Numbered from the stretch's first letter, positions 3,905-63,403 are shown. The stretch is DNA of 64,000 nucleotides from an uncultured delta proteobacterium (GCA_963827955.1 CAWHDJ010000018.1:1373297-1437296), one strand, 5' to 3'. Notes: generated from the sequence alone by a model not told the origin. Translations and numbers: made by a program.

Positions 3905-5468
3905 AGGCTGGCCCAAGATGACCACCGTCATGCGTAGGCTGGCGCACCCCAGGCAAAGTGGCCGTCCTTCCAGGCTTGGTGGAGCTTCCTCAGGTTGAAG
4001 GCGGTGCAGGCCAGCGCCCACTGGGCGAGGACCTTCGCGAACCCCCGGACGGTGAAGCGACGGAAGCCGTCGTTGCCCTTGATGCACCCGAAGACGTGCT
4101 CGACGATCTCCTTGCGGAGCTCGTACAGGTTGCGCATCTCGGGCTTCGCCATCAGCGCGCGCTGGCGCGCGAGATCGTCGTCGAAGGGGGTGCGGCTGAC
4201 CGCCCGCCCTTTCGGGTCGCGGGAGCACGCGGCACGCTCCGGGCAGTCGCGGGTGTGGCATCGGTAGATCGCTCTCTCGTAGGAAGCGTCGCAGCTCTTC
4301 TTGTTGTGGCCGACGAGGGTCAACAGTTCGCCGCGCGGGCAGACGTAAGCGTCGCGTTCACGGTCGTAGACGAAGCTCGACTTCGGCAGCAGCCCCTTGT
4401 CGGACTCGGCCTGCAGCGAGACCAAGACCGGCAGGTGCCTCTGGTGGGCCTGCTGGAGTTGCTCTCCCGAGGCGTACCCGGTGTCCGCATCGGTCAATCT
4501 CGCGACGGCACCGAGCACCCGCTTGGTCTCCTCCATCATCGGCACGAGCTGGGCGAGATCATTCTCGTCCGCGGAGAGGCCGAGCGCGACGATCAGGTCC
4601 GACTCGTGATCGACGACCGCCTGCGCGTTGTAGGCAAAGAGCCCCCGTCCGTTGCACTTCATCACCCGCGCGTCGACTTCTTTGGGGTGGAGGTGCTCGG
4701 TGCCGTGTTCATCGAGCAGCGTCAGCTGCTCGACCAGTGTCTGCCGGAGCTCAGCGACCTGCTGGTAGTCCCAGCGCTGCTGCCGTACGGACAACGCCGA
4801 GCGGCGGTCCTCCAGAGCTTCCAGATCGTCGTCGACCTCTTTCAGTTTTTTTTGGTCGAGACGCGATGTACCCCCGTGTTCACCGAGCAGACCGCCTGCA
4901 CCTTGGTGCCGTCGAGCGCATGGAGGTCCATCCCGACGCGCCCGGTCTCGGCCGCACGCCGGACCAGCGTGTCGAACACGGCCTCGAACGAGGCATGGAA
5001 GTAGCGCCAGAAGCGTCCGATCGAGCTGCGTCTCGGCGGATCGCACTCGCACAGGTACAGAAGGCGCAAGTCCGACGGGCAGGCTCGCGCCATGGCCCGC
5101 AGGCCACGGTTGCCTACGAACCACGAGAAGAGGAAGACCTTCAGCAGCCTGGCTACCGGGTGCGGCGACCGCCAGTTTGGACGGTGCCGCTCGACGAACC
5201 CGAGCGCACGCAGATCGAGCGAGTCGACAAACTCACTGACGAAACGCGCCGGATCGTCCGGAGGTACAAGGAGGTCTCGCGGGACCTGACGGAGCAGTTC
5301 GAGGACGGGGGGCGCAGCGGCATCGGGCATGCGACGCGATCTGACGCGCGGCTCCCTTCCAGACGAGCCACGGGTGCTTCCGCGGTGAGCCAGCCTCCGA
5401 CCACGCCGCAAGTGCTGCCCTTGGGCTACTGCTCAAGACAGTCCCGGTTGTCCTGCGCCAGCCTCGTC
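3905..5468 (-). mobile_element. IS1182/IS5-superfamily-like insertion sequence (~1.56 kb), boundaries approximate
   Basis: Encodes a transposase with an InsH-like N-terminus and a DDE C-terminus (…KEIVEHVFGCIKGNDGFRRFTVRGFAKV…). Imperfect terminal inverted repeats GTCAGAGGCTGGCCCA (3906-3921) vs rc GACGAGGCTGGCGCAG (~5452-5468). Confidence 0.55.
3928..5330 (-). CDS. IS1182-like transposase OrfAB produced by putative programmed -1 frameshift at an A8 run (4846-4853)
   Basis: OrfA (…MPDAAAPPVLELLRQ… to …VSTKKN*) and OrfB (…RLDQKKLKEVDDDLEALED… to …GAPAYA*) overlap exactly on the coding-strand sequence ACC AAA AAA AAC TGA. Slipping -1 on A_AAA_AAA gives the fused product …STKKKLKEVDDD…. OrfA start (5330 vs 5411) is uncertain. 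Confidence 0.6.
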
Positions 5469-5552
5469 AGCCCGGTGACCGGAGCCGCGGCCGTCAGGCC
5501 GCGGACCACAGCGTCATGGGCCCGCGCCCTGACGGGCGCGGCTCCGGTCACC
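5469..5552. repeat. 84-bp palindrome (18-bp perfect arms CCGGTGACCGGAGCCGCG / CGCGGCTCCGGTCACCGG), resembles the core of MITE2
   Basis: Arms read directly from sequence. Inner motif GACCGGAGCCGCG..GTCAG..CGCGGA is shared with the MITE2 copies at 17208 and 27885. Flanked on both sides by IS ends. Confidence 0.6.
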
Positions 5553-7143
5553 GGCCTTACGGCTGGGCATTGGTCTCATTTTTGCCGCAGTTTCTCGGCA
5601 TATTCGAACGCGTCGGCCCAGATCATCAGGCGCTCCAACCCACGTCCGATCGTCGTGGAGCCCGGGGGCCCGCCGGAGGACTTGCCGGTGTAGCCGCCGA
5701 GGTCGGCGATCCAGCGGACGGCTTGGGCGATGCTGGGCACGCCCTCCGGGATGGTCTCGGTGCGCATCTTGATCTTGGTCTTCGCGGCGCGGAGCGCCTC
5801 GAATCTCGAATCGCGGACAGCGCGATCGTGGCCGGAGCATCGGGTTGGGTGCGGGCGAGGTGCTTGAGGCGTTCGACGCGAGCAGCCACGGCAGCGAGCA
5901 TTGTAGCCCAGCGGATGACGTGGTCCTTGGTGTGCAGCTGTGTGTCCTCGACGTTGCAATGACCGCGCTTCCAGGCCCGGTGAAAGTCTTCCGCCCGCCA
6001 CCTGTGGCTGTAGCCCGCGATGATGTCCATGGCGTCATCGAACCCGTTCACGTCGGCGTCGGTGAGGAGCATCCAATCGATACGGTCTTCGCCGTGCGGC
6101 GCACGACGCTCGTGGGCCCAGACCACGCGCACGCTCAACGTCGTGCGGCTGTCCGTGGCGTACTCAGGTAGATCGAGCACGACGTCGGCGAAGCGCACGT
6201 CGAGCAGTGCGCGGCGGGCGCGTCGGTTCGGCCCGGCGGGCACGTCGAGGTAGTAGCTGCCCACGGTGCGGCGCTTGTGCATGTGCTTGAACAGCAGGCG
6301 CCGTCGGCCGTTCGCGAGCACCACAGGACGGTCCTGGACGGCGCGAATGGTGAAATGCCCGTGCTTCGCAGCGGCACGCAGAACCCCGGCGTTGTCACCC
6401 TCACGGTCAATCAGGAACCACGGCACACACGAGGGCGCCTCCTGGTGCACCTGTTCGCCGGTACGGGTCACGAAGTCGGCCCATCGTGCCGTCTCGGTTT
6501 CCCCTTCGCGTCGTCGCACGAACCGCGGTTTCTTGCTCTTCGGCCCGCGCGCCCAGAACTCGAGAATCGAGCAACCCCACGGGAGTGCCGTCGGCAGCTA
6601 CCGCGAGCATGTCGAGGACCTTCAACCCTCGCGTCGGCAGCGAGCGCATGCCGATGGATCCGAAGTCCTTCGTCTTCGAGGCGTCCGTGAGCGAGAAGCT
6701 GGTCCCATCGACGATCGCGTAGAAGAACGAGGCGCCGCCCACCACGCGAAGCGACGCCTTCGCGAACCCCGTGATGAGCGCCCTCGAAGAGATGTCGCCC
6801 TCGATGAAGTCGTACGCGGCCTGCAGCTCCGCACGCGCTTCGAAGACCTCCGTCAGCCGACCCGCAGGTTGCTCAGCGGCGCGTCGCAGCATCGACGCTG
6901 CGCGCCGGACTCGCCGTACGTCGCCAAGTTTCGCCGAGGCAACCTGCTCCTCCGCCCATCGCTCAATCTCGCAGCCTTCATCCATCGAGCGGCACGACCA
7001 CCCGCGGGACGGTTGTCCAGTACGACTACATGGACTCCGGCGCGCCAGCCCTCACGCTGACCCGATCGGCCATCATTTTCGCCACCGGCGCACCGCCCCG
7101 CTCGTCCGCCCGCAGATGAGACCAATGCCCAGGCCTTACGGCC
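5553..7143 (-). mobile_element. IS4-family-like insertion sequence (~1.59 kb)
   Basis: 27-bp terminal inverted repeats GGCCTTACGGCTGGGCATTGGTCTCAT (5553-5579) and ATGAGACCAATGCCCAGGCCTTACGGCC (7116-7143). Possible 4-bp flank CCGG on both sides if the ends are drawn 2 bp further in. Confidence 0.7.
5626..6985 (-). pseudogene. IS4-family DDE transposase split into N-terminal (6985-6407) and C-terminal (6519-5626) ORFs (+1 frame change near 6520)
   Basis: N-terminal ORF …FIEGDISSRALITGFAKASLRVVGGASFFYAIVDGTSFSL… and C-terminal ORF …RWADFVTRTGEQVHQEAPSCVPWFLIDREGD…YSHRWRAEDFHRAWK (Y-x2-R-x3-E-x6-K signature). No slippery motif seen at the junction. Confidence 0.6.
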
Positions 7144-7252
7144 GGGGTTCTAGTGAGTAGGTCCGGTTAGGGCGTCTTGCCACGAGGGTGGCGCGAAGGT
7201 AGTTGCTGGGGCGGACCTCGCTTCGCCTCCCTCGTCGTCGTTCCCGAAGGGG

Positions 7253-8767
7253 TTGACAACCCCGACGCCTTTCGCGTCGCCTGTCCCTGCGCCCTCCATG
7301 GACTGCACCGCCTGCCACACGCCCAACACCGACAACGCCCGCTTCTGTGCGAAGTGCGGCGCCCTCCTTCCCGCCAGCCCGACGGAGGAGGATCCGCTCA
7401 TCGGCACCATCGTGGGCGGCCGCTTCCGCATCACCGGCATCCTCGGCGAGGGCGGGATGGGGCGGGTCTACAACGCCGAGCAGCAGATGGGGACCAAGGT
7501 CCGCAAGGTCGCCGTCAAGACGCTGCTCGCCCAGTACGCGAGGGACCAGCAGGTCGTCGAGCGCTTCATGCGCGAGTGCGGGACGGTGAGCGAGCTGGAG
7601 CACCCGAACACCATCAAGGTCTACGACTACGGCAAGACGGACTCCGGCAATCTCTACATCGCCATGGAGCTGCTCTCCGGCATCTCGCTCGAGAAGGCGC
7701 TGGAGGCCGGCCCGCTCCCCTCCGATCGCGTCGACCGCATCCTCGGCCAGGTCACGGGCTCGCTCCAGGAGGCGCACGACAAGGGCATCGTCCACCGCGA
7801 CCTCAAGCCCGCCAACATCTACCTGACGAGCCGCGTCGGGCAGGACGACTACGTGAAGGTCCTGGACTTCGGCATCGCGAAGCACGACGAGCAGCACGCG
7901 AAGCAGGAGGAGAAGCTCACCCAGCAGGGCACCGTGCTCGGCACGCCGCCCTACATGAGCCCGGAGCAGTTCAAGGGCACGAAGCTCGACGCCCGGAGCG
8001 ACATCTACGCGCTCGGCGTGGTCGCGTACGAGATGCTCACCGGGCGCCTGCCCTTCGACGCCGACACGCCCTGGCTCTGGGCGACGCAGCACATGACGGC
8101 GCAGCCCTTCCCCTTCGAGACGCTCCCGCTCGGCAGCCAGGTGCCGACGAAGATGCGGGCCGCCGTGATGCGCGCGCTCGCCAAGGAGGCCGCCCACCGC
8201 CAGCAGACGGTGACGGAGTTCTACGACGAGTTCACGATGGGCGCCCCGCGCCCGAGCGCCACGAGCGGCCCGCGATCGAGCGGGCACGAGGCCGGGCCGA
8301 GCGGGACGGCGTTCATGCCCGTCTCCAGCCCGTCGACGCCCCCGTCCGGGATGCCCCCGACCACGGGGGCGACGCAGTTCCCCCTCGTGGCGCCGACGCA
8401 GGCGGCGATGCCGGCGGCCCCGAAGAGCCGGCTGGGCCTCTACATCGGCATCGCCGTCGTCGTGCTGGGCGGCGCCGGCGTCGGGCTCTACTTCGCGTTC
8501 GGGCAGGACGAGCCGAGCCCCGCGCAGAAGGCGTGCAAGGCGACGATCTCGGCGGCCAACGCGGGCAAGATCGCGGCGGCCGTGGAGCACGTCAAGGCGT
8601 GCGAGGGGCCGCTCAAGAACACAGCGCGCAGCGCGATCGACGCCGCCGCGGTGAAGGCCGCGGTCGAGCGGGGTTGCGCGACGCTGGAGGACGCGAAGGC
8701 TGCGGAGAGCATCCGGCTGCCCGAGGCGGTGAAGGTGCTCCGGGGGAAGAAGTGCAAGGGGCTCTGA
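7253..8767 (+). CDS. Ser/Thr protein kinase (Hanks-type) with N-terminal zinc-ribbon and C-terminal TM plus extracytoplasmic region
   Basis: CTACHTPNTDNARFCAKCG (C-x2-C…C-x2-C). Kinase motifs GEGGMGRVYNA, VAVKTL, HRDLKPANIYL, DFGIA, PPYMSPEQ. TM LGLYIGIAVVVLGGAGVGLYFAF. Start could be TTG 7253 or ATG 7298. Confidence 0.85.
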   Translation: MTTPTPFASPVPAPSMDCTACHTPNTDNARFCAKCGALLPASPTEEDPLIGTIVGGRFRITGILGEGGMGRVYNAEQQMGTKVRKVAVKTLLAQYARDQQVVERFMRECGTVSELEHPNTIKVYDYGKTDSGNLYIAMELLSGISLEKALEAGPLPSDRVDRILGQVTGSLQEAHDKGIVHRDLKPANIYLTSRVGQDDYVKVLDFGIAKHDEQHAKQEEKLTQQGTVLGTPPYMSPEQFKGTKLDARSDIYALGVVAYEMLTGRLPFDADTPWLWATQHMTAQPFPFETLPLGSQVPTKMRAAVMRALAKEAAHRQQTVTEFYDEFTMGAPRPSATSGPRSSGHEAGPSGTAFMPVSSPSTPPSGMPPTTGATQFPLVAPTQAAMPAAPKSRLGLYIGIAVVVLGGAGVGLYFAFGQDEPSPAQKACKATISAANAGKIAAAVEHVKACEGPLKNTARSAIDAAAVKAAVERGCATLEDAKAAESIRLPEAVKVLRGKKCKGL

Positions 8768-8835
8768 TCTGACCCGTCGGGCCGGCGAGCCCGTTTTCAA
8801 GCGCCCCGTGCCCGGCTACCCTCGCCGGCCGAGCC

Positions 8836-10716
8836 ATGGGCTTCTGGGACAAGCTGAAGGCGATGATCGGCGGCGGCGGCGCGGGCGGCGACGAGCCCCC
8901 GGTCGACGACCTCACCCGCCGCGTCGAGGCGGTCGTCGTCCGCTACGTGACGCGCAAGGAGCCCTTCGAGGCGATCGTCGTCGCCGCCGAGGTCGCCGAC
9001 CCGCGCTCCATCACCGCCCTCGCCGCCGCGAGCGGCACCGTCGCGCGCCTCCACGACGAGGGCCGCTTCGAGCCCCTCGGCTATACCCGCACCAAGCTCG
9101 CGGACGGCAACTGGCTGTACCACCCGACGGGCTACTCCGTCGCGCTGTACCGCGGCTCCTCCGGCGCCTCCGCGCCCGCCGCGTCGCCCCCTCCCGCCTC
9201 GCCGCCCGTCCAGTCTCCCCGCGCGGCGCCCGCGCCGGGCCCCGCCGCCAAGCCCAGGGACCCGTTCGCGCCCGCCGAGGGCATCCTCGGCCTCTCCGCC
9301 GACGAGCTGCGCAAGCGCGCCCTCCGCATCAACCCGTACCAGACGGCGTGGATCGGCCGCACCGACACCATCCCCCCGCAGAGCGACGAGCGCACCGCCC
9401 TCATCGACCGCGGGCTCATCCTCCGCGGCCTGCTCACCGAGGCGCAGATCGCCGAGATCCACCGCGTCGGCGACCTCTGGCTCCGCCACCACGAGGCGGC
9501 CCGCATGGCCGCGGCGGTCGCCGCCGGCGCGGCCAACAAGGCCGTGGCGGACCTGGCCGCGGAGCGCGCCGCCAAGAAGGCCGAGAAGAAGCGCGAGGCC
9601 GCGGAGCGCGCCCGCCTCCGCGCCGAGGAGATCCTCCGGCGCAAGCGCGAGGACATCGTCTACCTCGGCGCCGGCGTCTCCAAGGGCCTCGCCGACCGCC
9701 GCGCCCACGTCGAGGAGCTCGCGCGCCGCGGCCTGCCCGTGCTCGCGTCGCCGGCCGACGTCGCCCGCGCGATGGGCATCCCGGTGCCCGAGCTGCGCTG
9801 GCTCTGCTTCCACGCCGAGGCCGCCGACAAGCCGCACTACGCCTACTTCGAGATCCCGAAGCGCAGCGGCGGCAAGCGCCTCCTCGCTGCGCCGCAGCCC
9901 CGCCTCGGCCGCGCCCAGGCCTGGGTCCTCCACGAGGTGCTGGAGAAGCTCCCGACGGAGGATCCGGCGCACGGCTTCGTCAAGGGCCGCTCCACCCTGA
10001 GCTGCGCCATCCCGCACGTCGGCAAGGGCGTCGTCGTCAACCTCGACCTCTCGGACTTCTTCCCCACCATCACGTTCGGCCGCGTCCGCGGCGTCTTCCA
10101 GCGCCTCGGCTACTCCCCCGCCGTCGCCACCGTCCTCGCCCTCCTCTGCACCGAGCCCCCGCGCGCCCCCGTCGAGTACGAAGGCCACCGCACCTGGGCC
10201 GCCGTCGGCCCCCGCGCGCTCCCCCAGGGCGCCTGCACCAGCCCCGCCCTCTCCAACCAGGTCGCGAGGAAGCTCGACCGCCGCCTGCGCGGCATGAGCC
10301 GGAAGCACGGCTTCACGTACACCCGCTACGCCGACGACCTCACCTTCTCCTCCCCGCGCGGCGAACGTCCGGCATCGGACGTCGCCATGCTCCTCGCCCG
10401 CGTCCGCCACATCGTCGGCGAGGAGGGCTTCGCCCTGAACCCCAAGAAGGGCCGCGTCCAGCGGGCCGGCGGCCGGCAGACGGTGACCGGCATCGTCGTG
10501 AACGACCGCCCCTCCGTCCCGCGGGACGAGGTGCGCCGCCTCCGCGCCATCTTGCACCTGGCGGCCAGCACCGGCCTCGCCGCGCAGAACCGCGAGGGCG
10601 TCCCGCACTTCGAGGCCCACGTCCGCGGCAAGCTCGCCTACCTCCACATGGTGGACCCGGAGAAGGCGGCGCCGATGCTCGCGCAGCTCGACGCGCTGGT
10701 CGCGGCGGGGCGCTGA
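8836..10716 (+). CDS. retron-type reverse transcriptase with ~290-aa N-terminal extension (626 aa)
   Basis: RT motifs read in the translation: YAYFEIPKRSGGKRLLAAP (domain 1), HGFVKGRS (domain 2), NLDLSDFFPTI (domain 3/A), LPQGACTSPALSN (domain 4/B'), YTRYADDLTF (catalytic YADD), and RQTVTGIVVN (VTG motif characteristic of retron/retron-like RTs). N-terminal 290 aa has no recognisable fold, then a Pro/Ala-rich linker and a basic coiled-coil (AERAAKKAEKKREAAERARLRAEEILRRKRED). Confidence 0.85.
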   Translation: MGFWDKLKAMIGGGGAGGDEPPVDDLTRRVEAVVVRYVTRKEPFEAIVVAAEVADPRSITALAAASGTVARLHDEGRFEPLGYTRTKLADGNWLYHPTGYSVALYRGSSGASAPAASPPPASPPVQSPRAAPAPGPAAKPRDPFAPAEGILGLSADELRKRALRINPYQTAWIGRTDTIPPQSDERTALIDRGLILRGLLTEAQIAEIHRVGDLWLRHHEAARMAAAVAAGAANKAVADLAAERAAKKAEKKREAAERARLRAEEILRRKREDIVYLGAGVSKGLADRRAHVEELARRGLPVLASPADVARAMGIPVPELRWLCFHAEAADKPHYAYFEIPKRSGGKRLLAAPQPRLGRAQAWVLHEVLEKLPTEDPAHGFVKGRSTLSCAIPHVGKGVVVNLDLSDFFPTITFGRVRGVFQRLGYSPAVATVLALLCTEPPRAPVEYEGHRTWAAVGPRALPQGACTSPALSNQVARKLDRRLRGMSRKHGFTYTRYADDLTFSSPRGERPASDVAMLLARVRHIVGEEGFALNPKKGRVQRAGGRQTVTGIVVNDRPSVPRDEVRRLRAILHLAASTGLAAQNREGVPHFEAHVRGKLAYLHMVDPEKAAPMLAQLDALVAAGR

Positions 10717-10726
10717 GCGGCACGAA

Positions 10727-10766
10727 AAGAGGACCGCAAGGGCGCAAGGGCGCAAGGAATTGGAGA
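10727..10766. repeat. left arm of long tandem-octamer palindrome 3' of RT (GAGGACC[GCAAGGGC]x3-like), interrupted by IS
   Basis: GAGGACCGCAAGGGCGCAAGGGCGCAAGGAATTGGAGA is the reverse complement of 12412-12452 (CCTTGCGAAACCCTTGCGTCCCTTGCGCCCTTGCGGCCTC). Removing the IS and one TTCA copy rebuilds a ~100-nt hairpin starting 10 nt after the RT stop codon. Confidence 0.75.
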
Positions 10767-10770
10767 TTCA

Positions 10771-12407
10771 ACGTACATTTCGGGCTCGGTGACGGGCCAG
10801 AGCGCCGGCGGGCGGATTTGACCCTCGATGCGCACCGCCGTCGCGTCGGTGCACCCTGCCGAGCATCCCGCGCCGACACGACCCCCTTACCCCCACACCG
10901 CACGAAGCTGTGATCTGCTCACTCCAGCAGCGGCGAGCCAGGCAGGAGGTGGAGCTTGCGCCCTCGACCTGAGCGCGAGAGGCGGCCGGGGACGCGCAGC
11001 AGCACGCGTCGTCGCCACGGCGTTCGCCAGCGGGCAAGGTGGGGGAACTGCTCGGTCGTGTATCGATCGAGCAGGTTGTGGGTGAGCATCTTGAGCAGGA
11101 ACATGGCGTGGTTGGCGGCGAAGCCATACGTCGAGCCGTGGGCGATGCCCCACGCGCCCTTGAACTCGGCGATCAGCGGCTCGATGCCGGCGCGCTGGTC
11201 GTAGTCCCAGGCGATGTCGTTGGCGTCGTCGGTGCGGTTGGTGAGGAACACCTGGACCGTCCAGTCGTGGCCGTCCAGCAGGGGCAACTGCCTGCCGTGG
11301 CGTTCGAGCGAGCGGACCACGATGACGCGGACATGGAGGCCCAGCTCACGCCAGCTCCCACGCACGAAGTCGACCTCGGCGATTTGTCGGATGGGCTGCT
11401 TCTCCGCATCGATGTCCACCGTCTTCCAGCTCTCCACCGCGAGGATGGCGTTGTAGAGGTCGTTGGTGACCCGTCCCTTGATGACGTAGAACGCCTGCGC
11501 TTCGTGCAGCGCATGGAGCACCTCGGCGCAGTCACCCGCCGAGTCGATCCGCACGCAGAGCGAGCTGCCACGCCGGAGCTTCTTCTGCGCACGCTTCACC
11601 CAGCGCGTCAGCGTCGCCGTGTCGTCCGCCCCAAAGCCCGTGTTGCCCGGCCGGAGCTGCGCCCCGACGATGGTGTCCGTCTCGGCGATGCGCGCGATCA
11701 TCGGGTGGTAACTCGGCCGCCCGTGGTAGCGCGGGTTCGGGCCGGGCAAGGCGCCTTCGAGCTCGCCGAAGACGGGCAGAACCGAAGTGTCCACGTCGAG
11801 GTGCACGAACGTTCCCCGGAGCTGCGGCACGCGGACGAGGCCGTGCTCGGCCACCATGCCCTCGAGGTCGGAGAGCGCTCGATTGTCGAACCGCGCGAGA
11901 TCGTCGTAGAGCGTGTCGATGCTCGGGACGACACCGCCCGCCAGGTGCGTGAACAGCGGGTCGGCCGCGAGGGCCTCGACGCCGAAGACGCGAGGCTCGC
12001 CCACGGCGACCGCGTCCATGAGCAGCCGCATCTGCGCGCCCATGGGGTAGACGACGCGTGGCCCGGCCTTGAGCCTGCCGAGCTTCTCGCGCAGCTCGCG
12101 ATCGACGCCGAGGTGGCGCAGGTGCACCCCGAACCCGACGAGGCCGGCGACGCCCGTCAGGTTGGGATCGGGTGCGCCCGCGCGGATCGTCGCTGGGTCC
12201 GGGCGCTGCACCCGCCGCCGTCGTTCATTGCCATCGCCACGCTTGCCTCCCGTCGCATCCCGCCGCACCTTGGAGGTGCTCGGCGCTCTCTTGCTTCTTT
12301 TCATCGCAAGAACGGATGTAGGGAGCGCCGAGCTTATTTTCTCGGAAAAAACAGACGATCGGTGCTCAGCACCCGCTCACGCGGTGCTACGCAGCCCGAA
12401 CTCCACG
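10771..12407 (-). mobile_element. IS1380-like insertion sequence, copy 2 (complete, 1637 bp) with 4-bp target-site duplication TTCA
   Basis: Termini ACGTACATTTCGGGCTCGGTGAC… / …GCTACGCAGCCCGAACTCCACG (imperfect IR ACGT-ACATTTCGGGCT vs CGTGGAGTTCGGGCT). TTCA at 10767-10770 and 12408-12411. Confidence 0.85.
10919..12304 (-). CDS. IS1380/IS4-superfamily DDE transposase (461 aa, intact)
   Basis: Single uninterrupted ORF. The same protein is split or frameshifted in copies 1 and 3. YDQRAGIEPLIAEFK motif present. Confidence 0.85.
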   Translation of the reverse strand: MKRSKRAPSTSKVRRDATGGKRGDGNERRRRVQRPDPATIRAGAPDPNLTGVAGLVGFGVHLRHLGVDRELREKLGRLKAGPRVVYPMGAQMRLLMDAVAVGEPRVFGVEALAADPLFTHLAGGVVPSIDTLYDDLARFDNRALSDLEGMVAEHGLVRVPQLRGTFVHLDVDTSVLPVFGELEGALPGPNPRYHGRPSYHPMIARIAETDTIVGAQLRPGNTGFGADDTATLTRWVKRAQKKLRRGSSLCVRIDSAGDCAEVLHALHEAQAFYVIKGRVTNDLYNAILAVESWKTVDIDAEKQPIRQIAEVDFVRGSWRELGLHVRVIVVRSLERHGRQLPLLDGHDWTVQVFLTNRTDDANDIAWDYDQRAGIEPLIAEFKGAWGIAHGSTYGFAANHAMFLLKMLTHNLLDRYTTEQFPHLARWRTPWRRRVLLRVPGRLSRSGRGRKLHLLPGSPLLE

Positions 12408-12411
12408 TTCA

Positions 12412-12464
12412 ATCCTTGCGAAACCCTTGCGTCCCTTGCGCCCTTGCGGCCTCTTCTCTTTCTC
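12412..12464. repeat. right arm of the tandem-octamer palindrome (complement of 10727-10766)
   Basis: See 10727-10766. Ends at the GTG start of the GNAT gene. Confidence 0.75.
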
Positions 12465-12989
12465 GTGACGCCAATCGACGTTCCCTCCATCGACACCGAG
12501 CGCCTCACGCTGCGCGGCCACCGCCTCGATGACTTCGCCGACTCCCTGGCCCTCTGGTCGGATCCCGAGGTCACGCGCCACATCGGTGGCCGCCCGAGTA
12601 CGGAGGAGGAGGTCTGGGCCAGGCTCCTCCGGTACGTGGGGCACTGGTCGCTGCTCGGGTTCGGCTACTGGGTGGTGCGGGAGAAGGGCTCGGGGCGCTT
12701 CGTCGGCGAGGTCGGCTTCGCCGACTTCCACCGGGACATGGACCCTCCGCTCGGGCCCGCGCCGGAGGCCGGCTGGGTGCTCGCGCCCGCCGCGCACGGG
12801 AAGGGATACGCGACCGAGGCCGCGCGCGCGGCCCTCGCGTGGGGCGAGGCGCGCCTCGGCTGGGCGCGGACCGTGTGCATCATCGACCCGGAGAACGCGC
12901 CCTCCCTCCGCGTCGCCGACAAGTGCGGGTTCCGCGAGATCCACCGCGCGACGTACAAGGGCGGTCCCGCCGTCGTCTTCGCGCGCTGA
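12465..12989 (+). CDS. GNAT-family N-acetyltransferase (RimJ/RimL-like, 174 aa)
   Basis: …RLTLRGHRLDDFADSLALWSDPEVTRHIGG…GYWVVREKGSGRFVGEVGF…GWVLAPAAHGKGYATEAARAALAWGE… is typical of Acetyltransf_3. GTG start immediately after the palindrome; the upstream part of ORF 12069.. lies inside the IS. Confidence 0.75.
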   Translation: MTPIDVPSIDTERLTLRGHRLDDFADSLALWSDPEVTRHIGGRPSTEEEVWARLLRYVGHWSLLGFGYWVVREKGSGRFVGEVGFADFHRDMDPPLGPAPEAGWVLAPAAHGKGYATEAARAALAWGEARLGWARTVCIIDPENAPSLRVADKCGFREIHRATYKGGPAVVFAR

Positions 12990-13026
12990 GCCCCCGGCGT
13001 CCGCGGGCGGGACCGGAGCCGCGCCG

Positions 13027-13752
13027 TCAGGGCCCGAGCTCGAGCAGCTTCGGCGCCTCGGGGGTGCCCCACGCCCCGCAGCGCCGCTCCTTCGTCCTCC
13101 GCGGCGTGTCGCAGCGCGAGACGTCGACGTAGAAGCGCGTCCCCGGCGTCGCCGCCAGGCCGAGCGAAGCGAGCGGGATGGCCGCCTCGACCACCCATTC
13201 CTCGTCGTCCTGGCCCGTCGGATCGTTCAGCGTCCCGTCGAGGTCGACGCCCAGCTCGATCCCGCTCTCCCACGACACGTCCGGCTTGCCGCCCGGCGGC
13301 ACCCTCGCGTCCGTCACCGTCCCGGCGGGGTTGATGTCGAACGAGTAGGTGGGCGCCGCGCCCCCGTCGGCGGAGGCGGGCCGGATGTGGAGCGAGAAGG
13401 CGTCGTCGATCCACACCGGCCCGTCGTGCTGTTTCACCTTCGCGTTGATGTCGTTGTCGGCTGCGTAGAGGTACACGTACAGGTTGTTCGCGTCCCACAT
13501 GAAGCGGGACTCGGAGTAGGGAATCGCCTCCTGCCCCCGCGCGTCGACGAAGTGGCCGGCGCGCGTCGCGATCGCGTTCCACGCCGGCTCGTTCGCCTCG
13601 CCGTCGGGCTTGACGGGCGCCGTCGTGCGCGCGACACGGAGCGCCGCGGGAGCAGCGGCGGCGGCGGGAGGCGCGGGCTTGTCCTGCGCGCGCTTGCAGC
13701 CGAGGAGCGCGCCGGCGAGGAGCGCCGCGGAGAAGAGCGGAGCGAGCTTCAC
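13027..13752 (-). CDS. lipoprotein with CBM9/DOMON-like carbohydrate-binding-type domain
   Basis: GTG start VKLAPLFSAALLAGALLGC (lipobox LLGC), then …WNAIATRAGHFVDARGQEAIPYSESRFMWDANNLYVYLYAADNDINA…. The GTG overlaps the upstream gene's TGA (GTGA), suggesting translational coupling. Confidence 0.7.
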   Translation of the reverse strand: MKLAPLFSAALLAGALLGCKRAQDKPAPPAAAAAPAALRVARTTAPVKPDGEANEPAWNAIATRAGHFVDARGQEAIPYSESRFMWDANNLYVYLYAADNDINAKVKQHDGPVWIDDAFSLHIRPASADGGAAPTYSFDINPAGTVTDARVPPGGKPDVSWESGIELGVDLDGTLNDPTGQDDEEWVVEAAIPLASLGLAATPGTRFYVDVSRCDTPRRTKERRCGAWGTPEAPKLLELGP

Positions 13753-17207: not shown

Positions 17208-17420
17208 TAAATCACCGAGCACGATCCTCGTTCAAGGAGCCGGGAGCAACGTATGGAACCCCGGGCGTGAGCCCGCGGACCGGAGCCGCGCGCGTCAGCA
17301 CGCGGAGGCCGCGGCACAGCCCCTGACGTCATGGTCCCCGCGCTCACGCGCGAGGCTCCGGTCCGCGGGCTCACGCCCGTGGGTTCCATCGTTGTGTCAG
17401 GATCGCGCTCGGTGATTTAG
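17208..17420. repeat. MITE2 copy 1 (~213 bp palindromic element, TIR CTAAATCACCGAGC(A/G)CGATCCT)
   Basis: Reverse complement of 27885-28100 at roughly 90% identity. Long internal palindrome around CCGCGGACCGGAGCCGCG. Confidence 0.8.
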
Positions 17421-26247: not shown

Positions 26248-27884
26248 ACGTACATTTCGGGCTCGGTGACGGGCCAGAGCGCCGGCGGGCGGATTTGACC
26301 CTCGATGCGCACCGCCGTCGCGTCGGTGCACCCTGCCGAGCATCCCGCGCCGACACGACCCCCTTACCCCCACACCGCACGAAGCTGTGATCTGCTCACT
26401 CCAGCAGCGGCGAGCCAGGCAGGAGGTGGAGCTTGCGCCCTCGACCTGAGCGCGAGAGGCGGCCGGGGACGCGCAGCAGCACGCGTCGTCGCCACGGCGT
26501 TCGCCAGCGGGCAAGGTGGGGGAACTGCTCGGTCGTGTATCGATTCGAGCAGGTTGTGGGTGAGCATCTTGAGCAGGAACATGGCGTGGTTGGCGGCGAA
26601 GCCATACGTCGAGCCGTGGGCGATGCCCCACGCGCCCTTGAACTCGGCGATCAGCGGCTCGATGCCGGCGCGCTGGTCGTAGTCCCAGGCGATGTCGTTG
26701 GCGTCGTCGGTGCGGTTGGTGAGGAACACCTGGACCGTCCAGTCGTGGCCGTCCAGCAGGGGCAACTGCCTGCCGTGGCGTTCGAGCGAGCGGACCACGA
26801 TGACGCGGACATGGAGGCCCAGCTCACGCCAGCTCCCACGCACGAAGTCGACCTCGGCGATTTGTCGGATGGGCTGCTTCTCCGCATCGATGTCCACCGT
26901 CTTCCAGCTCTCCACCGCGAGGATGGCGTTGTAGAGGTCGTTGGTGACCCGTCCCTTGATGACGTAGAACGCCTGCGCTTCGTGCAGCGCATGGAGCACC
27001 TCGGCGCAGTCACCCGCCGAGTCGATCCGCACGCAGAGCGAGCTGCCACGCCGGAGCTTCTTCTGCGCACGCTTCACCCAGCGCGTCAGCGTCGCCGTGT
27101 CGTCCGCCCCAAAGCCCGTGTTGCCCGGCCGGAGCTGCGCCCCGACGATGGTGTCCGTCTCGGCGATGCGCGCGATCATCGGGTGGTAACTCGGCCGCCC
27201 GTGGTAGCGCGGGTTCGGGCCGGGCAAGGCGCCTTCGAGCTCGCCGAAGACGGGCAGAACCGAAGTGTCCACGTCGAGGTGCACGAACGTTCCCCGGAGC
27301 TGCGGCACGCGGACGAGGCCGTGCTCGGCCACCATGCCCTCGAGGTCGGAGAGCGCTCGATCGTCGAACCGCGCGAGATCGTCGTAGAGCGTGTCGATGC
27401 TCGGGACGACACCGCCCGCCAGGTGCGTGAACAGCGGGTCGGCCGCGAGGGCCTCGACGCCGAAGACGCGAGGCTCGCCCACGGCGACCGCGTCCATGAG
27501 CAGCCGCATCTGCGCGCCCATGGGGTAGACGACGCGTGGCCCGGCCTTGAGCCTGCCGAGCTTCTCGCGCAGCTCGCGATCGACGCCGAGGTGGCGCAGG
27601 TGCACCCCGAACCCGACGAGGCCGGCGACGCCCGTCAGGTTGGGATCGGGTGCGCCCGCGCGGATCGTCGCTGGGTCCGGGCGCTGCACCCGCCGCCGTC
27701 GTTCATTGCCATCGCCACGCTTGCCTCCCGTCGCATCCCGCCGCACCTTGGAGGTGCTCGGCGCTCTCTTGCTTCTTTTCATCGCAAGAACGGATGTAGG
27801 GAGCGCCGAGCTTATTTCTCGGAAAAAACAGACGATCGGTGCTCAGCACCCGCTCACGCGGTGCTACGCAGCCCGAACTCCACG
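26248..27884 (-). mobile_element. IS1380-like insertion sequence, copy 3, with 4-bp target-site duplication CTAA; inserted 4 bp inside the terminus of a MITE2 copy
   Basis: Same termini as copy 2. CTAA at 26244-26247 and 27885-27888; the downstream sequence continues as the MITE2 terminus (CTAA)ATGGCCGAGCGCGATCC. Confidence 0.85.
26364..27782 (-). pseudogene. IS1380/IS4-superfamily transposase, copy 3, 1-bp insertion near C-terminus (frameshift over last ~60 codons)
   Basis: Copy 3 reads TATCGATTCGAGCAGG where copy 2 reads TATCGATCGAGCAGG. There is also one substitution (FDDRAL vs FDNRAL). Could be a sequencing indel. Confidence 0.65.
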
Positions 27885-28100
27885 CTAAATGGCCGAGCGC
27901 GATCCTGACACAACGATGGAACCCACGGGCGTGAGCCCGCGGACCGGAGCCTCGCGCGTGAGCGCGGGGACCATGACGTCAGGGGGCTGTGCCGCGGCCT
28001 CCGCGTGCTGACGCATGCGGCTCCGGTCCGCGGGCTCACGCCCGGGGTTCCATACGTTGCTCAGCGGCTCCTTGAACGAGGATCGTGCTCGTTGATTTAG
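27885..28100. repeat. MITE2 copy 2
   Basis: Reverse-complement match to 17208-17420. Ends …GAGGATCGTGCTCGTTGATTTAG, directly upstream of mini-lipoprotein gene B. Confidence 0.8.
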
Positions 28101-30844: not shown

Positions 30845-31455
30845 ACGGCCGTGATGCAGGGCACGGCGTCCGGGATGCGGAGCACGGCCGCCGTGATGTA
30901 GGGCACGGCGTCCGTGATGTAGGGCACGGCGTCCGGGATGCGGGGAACGGCGTCCGGGATGCGGGGAACGGCGTCCGGGATGCGGGGAACGGCGTCCGGG
31001 ATGCGGGGCAGGGCGTCCGTGATGCGGGGAACGGCGGCCGGGATGCAGGGCAGGGCGTCCGTGATGCAGGGAAGGGCGTCCGGGATGCGGGGAACGGCGG
31101 CCGGGATGCGGGGCAGGGCGTCCGTGATGCAGGGAAGGGCGGCCGGGATGCAGGGCAGGGCGGCCGGGATGCGGGGCAGGGCGTCCGTGTTGCAGGGAAG
31201 GGCGTCCGTGATGCAGGGAAGGGCGTCCGCGATGCAGGGCAGGGCGTCCGTGATGCAGGGAAGGGCGTCCGCGATGCAGGGCAGGGCGTCCGTGATGCAG
31301 GGCAGGGCGGCCGCGATGCAGGGCAGGGTGGCCGGGATGCCGAGCAGGGCGTCCGTGTTGCAGGGAAGGGCGTCCGTGTTGCAGGGCAGGGCGGCCGGGA
31401 TGCAGGGCAGGGCGTCCGGGATGCCGAGCAGGGCGTCCGGGATGCGCCGGAAGGG
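30845..31455. repeat. tandem array of ~29 x 21-bp units (consensus ~ AGGGCGTCCG(G/T)GATGC(A/G)GGGC)
   Basis: Read directly. The units are degenerate but phase-preserving (21 = 7 codons) and open in all six frames. The minus strand would encode (I/N)(P/T/A)DALPC heptads. Confidence 0.85.
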
Positions 31456-35316: not shown

Positions 35317-35559
35317 TTTCTCGTACCGCCTTGCCGTTCCTCGCCGAACCGCGACCGCCAGGGAGCGGGTGCCAGGCCGTCGCACGCGAGGCGCTTCGAC
35401 GTGCAAGGGCCTGTGTACGGTATGGCCACATGGCACCCGCTCCCTTGCGGTCGCGGTTCGGATTGCGTTTGCTCAACCTGGATGGCCGCTGCTCCAGGCG
35501 ATCGCGACGCCGCAGGCGTCTTCGGGCGCTACGACGAGGCGCCCGCCCACGTCCTGGAC

Positions 35560-46398: not shown

Positions 46399-46767
46399 AT
46401 GATCGATCCCTCCTTCGTGCTCGTCTACGTCACCGACCCCACCGCCAGCGCCGCGTTCTACGCAGGTATCCTGGGCCGCGAGCCCGTGGAAGCGTCGCCC
46501 AACTTCGTCATGTTCGCGCTCAAGGAGGGGGTGATGCTCGGGCTCTGGGCGCGCCACGAGGTCGCGCCCCAGGCCACGGCGCCCGGCGGCGCGGAGATCG
46601 GCTTCACCGTCGCCGGCCGCGGCGAGGTCGACGCCACCTTCGCGAAGTGGAAGGAGCGCGGCATGGTGATCGCGCAGCCGCCGACGAAGCTCGATTTCGG
46701 GTACACGTTCGTCGCGCTGGATCCCGACGGCCACCGGCTCCGCGTCTTCGTCCCCGAAGGGCCGTGA
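46399..46767 (+). CDS. VOC/glyoxalase-family protein (122 aa)
   Basis: MIDPSFVLVYVTDPTASAAFYAGILGREPVE…GYTFVALDPDGHRLRVFVPEGP. Confidence 0.75.
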   Translation: MIDPSFVLVYVTDPTASAAFYAGILGREPVEASPNFVMFALKEGVMLGLWARHEVAPQATAPGGAEIGFTVAGRGEVDATFAKWKERGMVIAQPPTKLDFGYTFVALDPDGHRLRVFVPEGP

Positions 46768-46780
46768 CGAGAGACTGAAA

Positions 46781-46856
46781 AACCGCCAAGACGCCAAGAC
46801 GCCAACAAGATGATTTCTTCTTTGCTTTTGGCGTCTTGGCGTCTTGGCGGTTCAAC
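46781..46856. terminator. long hairpin (22-bp perfect stem CCGCCAAGACGCCAAGACGCCA…, AT-rich 25-nt loop): probable factor-independent terminator / bidirectional stop
   Basis: AAAAACCGCCAAGACGCCAAGACGCCAACAAGATGATTTCTTCTTTGCTTTTGGCGTCTTGGCGTCTTGGCGGTTCAAC sits immediately 3' of the VOC stop. The stem is built from two tandem GCCAAGAC octamers. Confidence 0.6.
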
Positions 46857-46942: not shown

Positions 46943-48001
46943 ATGCACATCGCCGTGCTCACCTCGGGGGGCGACGCCCCTGGAATGAACGCCGCCATCC
47001 GGACCATCGCGGTGGCCGGCATCGCGCGGGGCCACAAGGTCACGGGGATCCGCCGCGGGTACCAGGGGCTGCTCGAGGGTGACACCACGGAGATCACGCT
47101 GCCCGGCATCGTCGGGATCACGCACCAGGGCGGGACGATCCTCGGCTCGTCCCGCTCCGCCGAGTTCCCGACCCCCGAGGGCCAGGCGCGCGCGCGGGCG
47201 CGGCTCGCGGCGATGGGCGCCGACGCGCTCGTCGTCATCGGTGGGAACGGGTCGCTGACGGGCGCGCACCTGCTCGCACGCGATCGCCCGTGCACGATCG
47301 TGGGCCTGCCGGCGTCCATCGACAACGACATCGGCTGCTCGGGCCTGAGCATCGGGGTGGACTCGGCGGTCAACACGATCGTCGAGGCCTGCGACCGCAT
47401 CTCGGACACCGCGCGCGCCCATCGCCGCGCCTTCATCGTCGAGGTGATGGGCCGGCGGTGCGGGTTCCTCGCGATGCGGGCGGGGCTCGCGGCCGAGGCG
47501 GACGCGATCCTCTATGGCGAGAGCGGCCTGGGCGAGGACGAGCTCGTGGCGCGGTTGCGCGAGGTCCTCCGGCGCGCGTTCGGCCCCGACGGATACAAGC
47601 AGCGCGCCCTCATCGTGAAGAGCGAGGGCGTCTCCGTCCCCGCCGCGCGCCTCGCGAAGCGGCTCGCCGACCACCTCGCCGACGACGCGCCCGGCGTCGA
47701 CATCCGCGAGACCGTGCTCGGCCACGTGGTCCGCGGCGGCAACCCGACCGCGCTCGACCGCGTGATCGCGCAGCGCGTCGGCTTCGCCGCCGTGGTCGGC
47801 TGCGAGCGCGGCGCGCACGACGTCATGATGGCCTGGGAGCCCCCCGGCGGCGCCGGCGCGGAGACGGCCGACCCCTCGGTGCGCGCCGTGCCCATCGCCG
47901 AGGTGCTCGCCGAGACGGAGCGCCTCCTCGACGGGACGAGCCCGGTCATCAGGAAGCGCATGGAGCTGCTCTCCCAGGTCGAGCACCTGCTCGTGGCCTG
48001 A
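46943..48001 (+). CDS. pfkA: ATP-dependent 6-phosphofructokinase
   Basis: MHIAVLTSGGDAPGMNAAIR…GGNGSLTGA…MGRRCGFLA… are the PFK family signatures. Confidence 0.9.
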   Translation: MHIAVLTSGGDAPGMNAAIRTIAVAGIARGHKVTGIRRGYQGLLEGDTTEITLPGIVGITHQGGTILGSSRSAEFPTPEGQARARARLAAMGADALVVIGGNGSLTGAHLLARDRPCTIVGLPASIDNDIGCSGLSIGVDSAVNTIVEACDRISDTARAHRRAFIVEVMGRRCGFLAMRAGLAAEADAILYGESGLGEDELVARLREVLRRAFGPDGYKQRALIVKSEGVSVPAARLAKRLADHLADDAPGVDIRETVLGHVVRGGNPTALDRVIAQRVGFAAVVGCERGAHDVMMAWEPPGGAGAETADPSVRAVPIAEVLAETERLLDGTSPVIRKRMELLSQVEHLLVA

Positions 48002-55218: not shown

Positions 55219-55385
55219 ATCCTAACCGCTCCCTTCGCAATCCGCCGAAGGCAGGCTCGCGGAGGGAGCGGGGGCTTCAGTCGTCATCCACACCGCTACA
55301 GTGAAGACGGCGCCTTTTTCCGACCAGCGGCCCCCGCTTCCTCCGCGTCCCGCCTTCGGCGGGACGCTCCGGGCGCGGTTAGGAT
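55219..55385. repeat. MITE1 copy 2
   Basis: ATCCTAACCGCTCCC…GGAGGGAGCGGGGGC … CGGCCCCCGCTTCCTCCGCGTCCCGCCTTCGGCGGGACGCTCCGGGCGCGGTTAGGAT. Lies in a divergent intergenic region. Confidence 0.8.
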
Positions 55386-60752: not shown

Positions 60753-60904
60753 ATCCTAACCGCGCCCGGAGCGAGCTGCCGTTTACGGCAGCTCGCGGAG
60801 GAAGCGGGGGCCGCAGGTCTGCTCGACGGCGCCTAGTGCGAAGCCGCGCCCCCCGCTTCCTCCGCGTCCCGCCTTCGGCGGGACGCTCCGGGCGCGGTTA
60901 GGAT
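60753..60904. repeat. MITE1 copy 3
   Basis: (TTCA)ATCCTAACCGCGCCCGGAGCGAGCTGCCGTTTACGGCAGCTCGCGGAGGAAGCGGGGGCCGC…GCGCCCCCCGCTTCCTCCGCGTCCCGCCTTCGGCGGGACGCTCCGGGCGCGGTTAGGAT. Lies between convergent genes. Confidence 0.8.
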
Positions 60905-63218: not shown

Positions 63219-63403
63219 GGGATCCTATGCGCCTACCGTGCGCCTACCGAACCGCGAGCGCAAGCGAGCGGATGCCAGGAGGCGCGGCGTCTTCATGCCC
63301 TCGCACGCGTGGCGCTACAGGTAGCGCGGCGCGTGCGAGGGCGTGTCGACGTAGGTGCTCTCTGGCGCCCGCTCCCTGGCGGTCGCGGTTCGGTATGTGC
63401 TGT

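Follow-up and report, generated by a model that had tools for sequence, protein, structure and literature searches.

The window analysed here is a 64,000-nt stretch of DNA (71.6% G+C) from an uncultured delta proteobacterium, in which a gene for a retron-type reverse transcriptase (RT; 8836–10716, plus strand) is followed on the same strand by a gene for a GNAT acetyltransferase (12465–12989). The spacer between the two genes is occupied by a long palindrome of ~100 nt, which an IS1380-family insertion sequence (IS; 10771–12407) divides into two halves. The palindrome is independent of both RT and GNAT, and is a member of a repeat family dispersed across several genera. Very probably, it is one copy, lacking an open reading frame (ORF), of a dispersed Myxococcota hairpin repeat that has nothing to do with the RT, and its loop was later hit by an active IS1380-family element.

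The RT gene ends with a TGA stop codon at 10714–10716. The left half of the palindrome (10724–10770), which we call type 1, reads as a purine tract, GAAAAGAGGA (10724–10733), an arm with three GCAAGG cores, CCGCAAGGGCGCAAGGGCGCAAGG (10734–10757), and the left part of the loop, AATTGGAGATTCA (10758–10770). After the IS, the sequence resumes with TTCA-AT, and the right half (12412–12464) contains the remaining loop, an arm with four CCTTGC cores, CCTTGCG-AAA-CCCTTGCG-T-CCCTTGCG-CCCTTGCGG (12414–12449), and a pyrimidine tract, CCTCTTCTCTTTCTC (12450–12464), with the GTG start of GNAT next at 12465. An inverted-repeat search found the arms complementary over 17 nt at 100% plus 19 nt at 95%, and Tandem Repeats Finder (TRF) detected period-8 arrays on both sides of the IS. 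When the IS and one copy of TTCA are removed, the 113-nt reconstruction has a predicted folding energy of −67.4 kcal/mol, compared with −36.8 ± 4.0 kcal/mol for shuffled sequences (z = −7.7; 200 shuffles, none as stable), and the 8-nt apical loop of the predicted fold, ATTCAATC, contains the duplicated TTCA. An earlier note, made from this DNA alone, had described an IS1380-like copy in the loop of a tandem-octamer palindrome between the RT stop and the GNAT start, and the sequence, repeats, transposase model and the fold that it proposed as a check bear this out. Its details require some correction, as the left arm comprises 2.75 octamers rather than three, pairing can begin 5 nt past the RT stop rather than 10, and the hairpin, with four cores on the right and three on the left, is imperfect.

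The IS is 1637 bp in length and lies on the minus strand. Its imperfect terminal inverted repeats, ACGTACATTTCGGGCT (10771–10786) and AGCCCGAACTCCACG (12393–12407), belong to a 22-nt, 82%-complementary pair that also covers the duplicated TTCAA. The target-site duplication TTCA is found at 10767–10770 and 12408–12411, and an equally possible parse has a 5-bp duplication, TTCAA, with the IS beginning at 10772. The transposase gene (10919–12304, minus strand) encodes 461 amino acids and matches the NCBIfam model NF033539 (transpos_IS1380) with 217.3 bits against a curated cut-off of 180 (E = 2.7e-64), and Pfam DDE_Tnp_1_4 (2.1e-28). Members of the IS1380 family, as described in ISfinder, have terminal inverted repeats, a target duplication of 4–5 bp and a length of 1.5–2 kb. 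The element agrees with this description in its score above the family cut-off, its terminal inverted repeats, its TTCA(A)/CTAA(A) duplications and its 1637 bp.

IS-free alleles of the locus were found through GNAT homologues at least 90% identical, on short contigs of related strains; three such contigs (L125, L207 and L208) were recovered, and a 28-nt stretch of the reconstructed empty site had 0 exact matches in metagenome contigs. In L125 and L208, the DNA is ~86–92% identical to the window and the palindrome, including its whole left half, is intact with no IS. The alignments cover window positions 9279–10768 and 8895–10768, respectively, and resume at 12411, such that the break in homology coincides with the ends of the IS. 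The palindrome of these alleles reads GAAAAGAGGACC-GCAAGGGC-GCAAGGGGC-GCAAGGG-ATCTGAGTTTGATTCCTCAGAAA-CCCTTGCGT-CCCTTGCGT-CCCTTGCG-CCCTTGCGG-TCCTCTTCTCTTCTC-GTG and folds at −89.3 kcal/mol. The comparison, which the earlier note had suggested, confirms the reconstruction, and because L125 and L208 are true IS-free alleles, the palindrome is the older feature and the IS the later event. The third contig, L207, has no palindrome: a spacer of 61 nt containing GGAGG separates RT from GNAT, which starts with ATG. Its homology to the window ends at 10710 and restarts at 12475. A more distant GNAT orthologue (L126) is also without the palindrome. Thus, the boundary occurs in four states: RT followed by a CBM9-like gene, RT–GNAT, RT–palindrome–GNAT, and RT–palindrome with IS–GNAT. 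This series suggests that the repeat entered, or replaced, a short RT–GNAT spacer in a recent ancestor, while the alleles show that the IS1380-family element transposed into the apical loop after the split from the L125/L208 lineage, duplicating TTCA.

The same architecture recurs far from this locus. It starts with a purine tract, continues through three or four GCAAGG cores 8–9 nt apart to an AT-richer variable loop, and then repeats the series as its mirror image up to a pyrimidine tract. A pattern fitting both arms, CCGCAAGGGCGCAAGGGN{1,2}GCAAGG (23 specified bases), was scanned over a genome collection and matched at least 117 stretches, chiefly in Sorangium and other Myxococcota. Sorangium sp. 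So ce513 has at least 27 matches, at chromosome positions between 0.14 and 11.4 Mb. Among the matches listed, 16 are from So ce375, 21 from each of two “Myxococcaceae” metagenome-assembled genomes (MAGs), 7 and 5 from two Polyangiales/Polyangiaceae MAGs, and a few from Byssovorax, other “Deltaproteobacteria” and oddly labelled MAGs; one Streptomyces match is a plain tandem repeat. At 30 loci, again among the matches listed, plus and minus patterns are less than 400 nt apart, with 22–169 nt between the matched 25-nt arm patterns. Outward of the arms, the copies share the consensus TTTCTCT, mirrored as AGAGAAA, in 57–88% of copies per position, and because this flank is conserved among copies, the purine and pyrimidine tracts in the window are part of the element. 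In the Sorangium copies, conservation reaches 50 nt or more on each side and is asymmetric, the consensus having one sharp end (…CTAG) and another without a defined limit. By a crude gene caller based on G+C at third codon positions (GC3), the copies are almost all intergenic, and they are enriched between convergent genes (29/75 vs 64/320 spacers; Fisher p = 0.0013). An Rfam search of 18 repeat-bearing loci at the gathering threshold matched two tRNAs and no family at the element. CRISPR-like arrays, integron attC sites and protein-coding repeats were considered and dropped; the arms lie outside GC3-supported reading frames. No published description of these repeats was found in the literature on Sorangium and myxobacterial REP or MITE elements, on the arm sequences, or on hairpin targeting by IS1380.

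A second palindrome with the type-1 layout and a different octamer, GCCAAGAC, lies elsewhere in the window (46781–46852) and is termed type 2. Its arms, AACCGCCAAGACGCCAAGACGCCAA and TTGGCGTCTTGGCGTCTTGGCGGTT, are 25 nt long and 100% complementary, enclose a 22-nt AT-rich loop, and were found by inverted-repeat search and by TRF with period 8. It begins 14 nt past the stop of an ORF (46399–46767) and lies 5′ of a gene starting near 46945. In Sorangium So ce134, type-2 arms are found beside a type-1 copy, and in L100, a Pirellulales MAG contig, a type-1 arm is paired with a type-2 arm.

Some copies show further peculiarities. The variable middle sometimes holds microsatellites such as (GATGAGA)n or poly-A, and expanded (GATGAGA)n, (GA)n or poly-A loops are seen in L011, L012, L105, L106 and L009 (678–790), which suggests that the loops are prone to slippage and also tolerate insertions. 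Exact type-1 arms also occur in contigs binned outside the Myxococcota (L033, L041, L046, L052 from a Thermoanaerobaculales MAG, L100, and L075 from a Chryseobacterium MAG), which could reflect mis-binning or horizontal spread. A copy in L096 (2400–2680) lies between direct repeats of 24 nt, GCTGCTCTAGCCCGCTCGCGGCGC; the repeated sequence contains a stop codon and may be a gene end duplicated at insertion.

A different origin for the palindrome would be local evolution as a bidirectional intrinsic terminator of the RT gene, with its likeness to sequences elsewhere produced by convergent selection for GC stems with A/T tracts. Its start a few nucleotides past the RT stop, its flanking tracts GAAAAGAGGA and CCTCTTCTCTTTCTC, the enrichment of the family between convergent genes and the position of the type-2 element just past a stop codon all fit such a function. 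We nevertheless regard this origin as highly unlikely, since 23 specified bases are identical at at least 117 loci in several genera, with shared, family-specific flanks in Sorangium, and convergence cannot account for such a family. Further, presence of the palindrome is polymorphic between ~90%-identical alleles, the same arms bracket whole genes, and a consensus terminator scan makes no call, the tail being TTTCTCT-like rather than a run of T. Lastly, 14 of the 75 element-bearing spacers (about one fifth) lie between divergent genes, which makes a purely 3′-end function unlikely.

The nature of the upstream gene raises another possibility, namely that this RT has a retron noncoding RNA (ncRNA) in a non-canonical position, that the palindrome is the msd-like part of this ncRNA, and that the IS has silenced the retron; this was one of two options in the earlier note. 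The RT is genuinely of the retron type (626 amino acids; PADLOC RT_XIII 1.3e-155, Pfam RVT_1, YADD and VTG motifs), msd sequences typically contain long hairpins, and Rfam finds no canonical ncRNA elsewhere in 6500–13200. Yet the palindrome does not travel with the RT. In a set of seven orthologous loci (L001–L007; RTs 72–85% identical), the RT is directly followed by a convergent CBM9-like gene, with neither GNAT nor the octamer palindrome, and because it is absent from all seven, the palindrome is not conserved with the RT; the close RT–GNAT allele L207 also lacks it. Conversely, no RT homologue is present in the loci of the at least 117 pattern-matching stretches, among the matches listed, and a palindrome of like architecture (type 2) follows an unrelated ORF. 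Small unrelated hairpins lie 3′ of the RT in L001 and L004. A palindrome of another repeat family, at ~6950–7180 in L007, also lies 3′ of the RT and could mislead in the same way.

Covariance models point in the same direction. At the gathering threshold, Rfam has no match in the whole window, and an E-value scan of 6500–13200 gave three weak, chance-level matches (two miRNA models and gyrA RNA). In the RT orthologue loci and the IS-free allele L125, the E-value scan found no retron msr family, and the palindrome gave only sub-threshold miRNA-hairpin matches. Rfam contains few retron models, so these negatives are weak taken alone. The RT family's own ncRNA was not found in the scans of 6500–13200, the orthologue loci and L125, nor in an alignment of the kinase–hypothetical spacers of L001, L002 and L004, which showed modest AT-rich conservation only. 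In known retrons, including a myxobacterial clade (type XIII), the ncRNA shares a cassette with the RT and precedes it (PMC7736814). We therefore give almost no credence to a silenced retron ncRNA at this position. The same palindrome at many unrelated intergenic sites of related genomes, the observation that the earlier note had named in advance as decisive against its retron option, instead upholds its other option, a generic, REP-like hairpin that served as an IS target.

The IS1380-family element is currently active. Two other copies in the window are 99.8–99.9% identical to it: copy B (26248–27884), with CTAA on both sides, and copy C (1–1561), which is cut by the window edge and has the flank TTGA. 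Copy C abuts a palindromic element at 1564–1717 and copy B lies 27 nt from another at 27911–28059, which may reflect a target preference or merely survival in intergenic DNA. All three copies thus lie in or beside palindromic repeats, which make up only a few per cent of the window, and the IS might specifically target hairpins or palindromic repeats, as IS1397 or ISPpu10 do with REPs. This seems rather unlikely to us, given that only one of three copies is inserted in a loop, the three palindromes come from three unrelated families, and palindromes are abundant in the intergenic DNA of this genome, where insertions mainly survive. The empty site of copy B, reconstructed and folded, lies outside any hairpin loop, which weakens the idea of hairpin-specific targeting. 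An alternative lies in the target sequence itself. The transposon piggyBac inserts at TTAA, and the tetramers hit by the three copies, TTCA, CTAA and TTGA, each differ from TTAA by one base. IS1380 transposases are distantly related to piggyBac (PMC10140906). The palindrome loop was probably hit as the sole AT-rich, TTAA-like patch within a very GC-rich stretch.

Where the repeat family itself came from is suggested by copies in which the arms enclose a gene. In L119 (5225–5775), type-1 arms 524 nt apart enclose a small gene whose product matches TIGR04256 (“GxxExxY protein”; 3.2e-40) and Pfam PF13366 (PDDEXK_3), and this cassette interrupts a type I restriction system, with the S gene on one side and the M gene on the other. 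A GxxExxY gene is also found inside a type-2 arm pair in L009 (5709–6167), and between a solo arm and a complete palindrome in L077 (5979–6635), so that the GxxExxY homologues in the fetched genome loci adjoin arms in 3/3 cases; this was the only gene seen between arms. To avoid circularity, 80 metagenome loci (L127–L206) were chosen by protein pattern only, of which 67 genes had at least 120 nt on both sides. With a local alignment score of 30 or more as the threshold, inverted flanking arms were present at 57/67 GxxExxY genes, compared with 12/67 for direct orientation and 2/99 for windows shifted by 700 nt. Tandem 7–10-nt units, most starting ACCGC, make up the arms in 51 of these 57 pairs; GCCAAGAC-like units are the commonest (33), with others of the GCAAGG, GCAGAG, GCAAAG, ACAGAG and ACGAA types, and ACCGC upstream together with GCGGT downstream was seen in 46/67 loci. 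Tandem-unit arms are thus statistically associated with GxxExxY genes. GxxExxY genes that share an arm type are often each other's nearest relatives (the GCAAGG-armed and ACAGAG-armed genes cluster), which may reflect ancestry only. The function of PF13366 is listed as unknown, with many horizontal transfers (PMC3424549). A GxxExxY profile had no match among PDB sequences, and no description of the arms or of their association with the gene was found in the literature on GxxExxY and the arm sequences.

The arms of the palindrome in the window appear to be the same kind of tandem-unit inverted repeats as those found on both sides of small GxxExxY (PD-(D/E)XK) genes across many bacteria. Because the arms are of the same kind, the ORF-less palindromes are best read as probable deletion derivatives of GxxExxY cassettes, comparable to miniature inverted-repeat transposable elements (MITEs), and such derivatives would have multiplied in the Polyangiales. 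GxxExxY genes bracketed by the same arm types are candidate parent elements, with a putative mobilising role. A broader reading, which we put forward tentatively and do not hold to be the probable one, is that tandem-octamer palindromes are the ends of widespread, undescribed small selfish cassettes. Such cassettes would consist of inverted 8–9-nt ACCGC-type arrays around a ~125-amino-acid GxxExxY cargo that possibly recognises or cuts the hairpin or cruciform of its own arms, while their ORF-less Polyangiales derivatives, at tens to hundreds per genome, would shape operons and provide AT-rich loops into which IS elements can insert safely.

The palindromes could instead be REPINs, inverted doublets of repetitive extragenic palindromic (REP) sequences mobilised in trans by a single-copy REP-associated tyrosine transposase (RAYT; Y1/HUH), with GxxExxY genes as incidental cargo or neighbours. 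As is described for REPINs (PMC3116915; PMC3337134), the copies fold into hairpins as inverted doublets around a variable spacer, are extragenic, occur in tens to hundreds and appear vertically persistent across the phylum. Against this, each arm is a tandem array of 8–9-nt units and not a short imperfect palindrome as in REP, and the gene between or beside the arms is a PD-(D/E)XK protein rather than a Y1 transposase in the same 3/3 genome and 57/67 metagenome loci. No RAYT turned up, although no search aimed at RAYT was made. On balance, mobilisation by a RAYT appears quite improbable.

Several points weigh against our preferred reading of the palindrome as a mobile, dispersed repeat with links to GxxExxY cassettes. 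Between L207 (empty) and L208 (filled), ~70 nt are replaced, with no clean insertion and no recognisable duplication, and comparison of the alleles and the Sorangium consensus did not establish a transposition mechanism, target duplication or element boundary for the repeat. The GxxExxY link is a co-occurrence, more than 95% of the fetched type-1 copies are without such a gene, and the window encodes none. For the source genome, the copy count of two palindromes covers the 64-kb window, and the leaning of the IS toward AT-rich, TTAA-like targets is drawn from three insertions. For a role at gene ends, the elements between divergent genes are awkward, as is the lack of a call by a simple terminator scan at the intact element in L125.

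The changes at the boundary likely had consequences for GNAT. Palindrome-bearing alleles lack the GGAGG and ATG of L207 and have a GTG start right after the pyrimidine tract; therefore, the repeat altered the expression signals of GNAT before the IS came. When transcribed, an intact repeat is predicted to form a very stable stem-loop (−67 to −89 kcal/mol), which between co-directional genes would attenuate transcription, be processed, or stabilise mRNA ends, rather than act as a canonical terminator. The hairpin may thus have attenuated read-through already before the IS arrived. The 1.6-kb IS now keeps the palindrome arms apart and most likely prevents transcription from upstream from reaching GNAT, since the GNAT start abuts the element and leaves no room for a promoter, a simple promoter scan found no sigma-70-like promoter in 10500–12700, and the transposase gene points in the other direction. 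On these grounds, the statement of the earlier note that the IS has uncoupled GNAT from the genes before it is plausible.

The surroundings of the RT have also been rearranged. In orthologous loci, the usual context 5′ of the RT comprises a large kinase, a hypothetical gene and an FKBP_C gene; the last precedes the RT in L001, L002, L004 and L005, with the large kinase and hypothetical gene further 5′ in L001, L002 and L004. This context is missing in the window and is replaced by a Zn-ribbon kinase and IS remnants. The kinase gene, directly 5′ of the RT (7253–8767, plus strand), encodes a 504-amino-acid protein with a Zn-ribbon and a Ser/Thr protein kinase domain (Pfam Pkinase 8.3e-44, Zn_Ribbon_1; PADLOC PD-T4-6-type kinase models); in the orthologous loci, this gene does not adjoin the RT on its 5′ side. 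IS remnants are found in 3928–6985. The RT has a conserved N-terminal extension of ~200 amino acids, shared by L001, L002, L004, L005 and L007, and full-length RT homologues are abundant in the Polyangiaceae (Minicystis, Byssovorax, Sorangium, Polyangium and Chondromyces). GNAT is of the RimJ/RimL type (Pfam Acetyltransf_3 6.8e-36; 174 amino acids in the source gene call, P0121), and 3′ of it lie a CBM9-like gene and a metallophosphoesterase gene on the minus strand.

The intergenic DNA of the window is rich in other repeats. Another palindromic family, with 60-nt arms (CAACG.TGGAACCC..GGGCGTGAGCCCGCGGACCGGAGCC…), is found at 17247–17394 and at 27911–28059, and a related palindrome is present in L007. 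Further long intergenic palindromes or MITE-like elements lie at 1564–1717, 55219–55385, 5465–5561, 35344–35461, 63240–63400 and 60787–60873, and fall into two or more additional families, whose ends read AATCCTAACCGCGCCC… and CCGAACCGCGACCGCCAGGGAGCGG…. At 30849–31445, the 21-nt unit CCGGGATGCAGGGCAGGGCGT is repeated in tandem (28 copies, 86% match); this region may code for heptapeptide repeats.

Taken together, the RT locus is not a retron silenced through its ncRNA; mobile DNA has reshaped a gene boundary here on two occasions, as a hairpin repeat first and an IS later. An IS within a repeated palindrome is ordinary; the repeat family and its GxxExxY link are the noteworthy part. A large palindromic repeat family has been identified in the biggest bacterial genomes (Sorangium and relatives) and tied to GxxExxY/PF13366 proteins. 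Should the link prove causal, these proteins would gain a role, and a new hairpin-bounded mini-cassette with MITE-like offspring would be defined. For annotation, the elements yield spurious N-terminal extensions (AQGRKG- or AKDAK-like peptides), and they can be mistaken for structured ncRNAs.

Compared with known systems, the palindrome resembles retron msr-msd (Mx162/type XIII) in being a long GC-rich hairpin beside a retron-type RT gene. It differs in lying 3′ rather than 5′ of the RT, in its lack of conservation with the RT, in the occurrence of this hairpin type at more than 100 RT-less sites and in having no Rfam msr match. The IS is an IS1380-family element (as are ISEcp1, IS1247 and IS942), passing the equivalog model, with a length of ~1.64 kb, imperfect terminal inverted repeats, a 4-bp (or 5-bp) duplication and near-identical copies. 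It differs in that the copy in the palindrome has no detectable outward promoter toward GNAT, and its transposase reads toward the 3′ end of the RT gene.

The repeat family shares with the REP/REPIN–RAYT systems of Enterobacteria and Pseudomonas an extragenic location, many copies per genome, inverted doublets that fold into long hairpins and a variable spacer; REPs also often lie at gene 3′ ends and can serve as IS targets. The unit is not self-palindromic as in REP, since the arms are direct repeats of tandem 8–9-nt units (GCAAGGGC, GCCAAGAC and others), and the associated gene encodes a GxxExxY PD-(D/E)XK protein. Intervening sequences (IVS) of 23S rRNA form a long stem that RNase III cuts, and their loop contains a small ORF. 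Here too, an insertion in transcribed DNA has flanking inverted repeats that form a long stem, and its loop either contains a small ORF or is empty, but the repeats lie outside rRNA and the ORF is GxxExxY/PF13366 rather than the four-helix-bundle IVS protein. MITEs, such as the Correia elements of Neisseria, ERIC/IRU, RUP and BOX, are also short, ORF-less and dispersed, with terminal inverted repeats and lineage-specific internal segments, are presumed to be deletion derivatives of a gene-carrying element, and can affect the transcription and RNA processing of their neighbours. For our repeat, no target-site duplication and no transposase belonging to a known IS family were found, the arms are internally tandem-periodic, and the candidate parent carries a ~125-amino-acid protein of a nuclease superfamily instead of a DDE transposase. 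With these differences, the repeat matches the MITE description in being short and ORF-less, with terminal inverted repeats and many copies.

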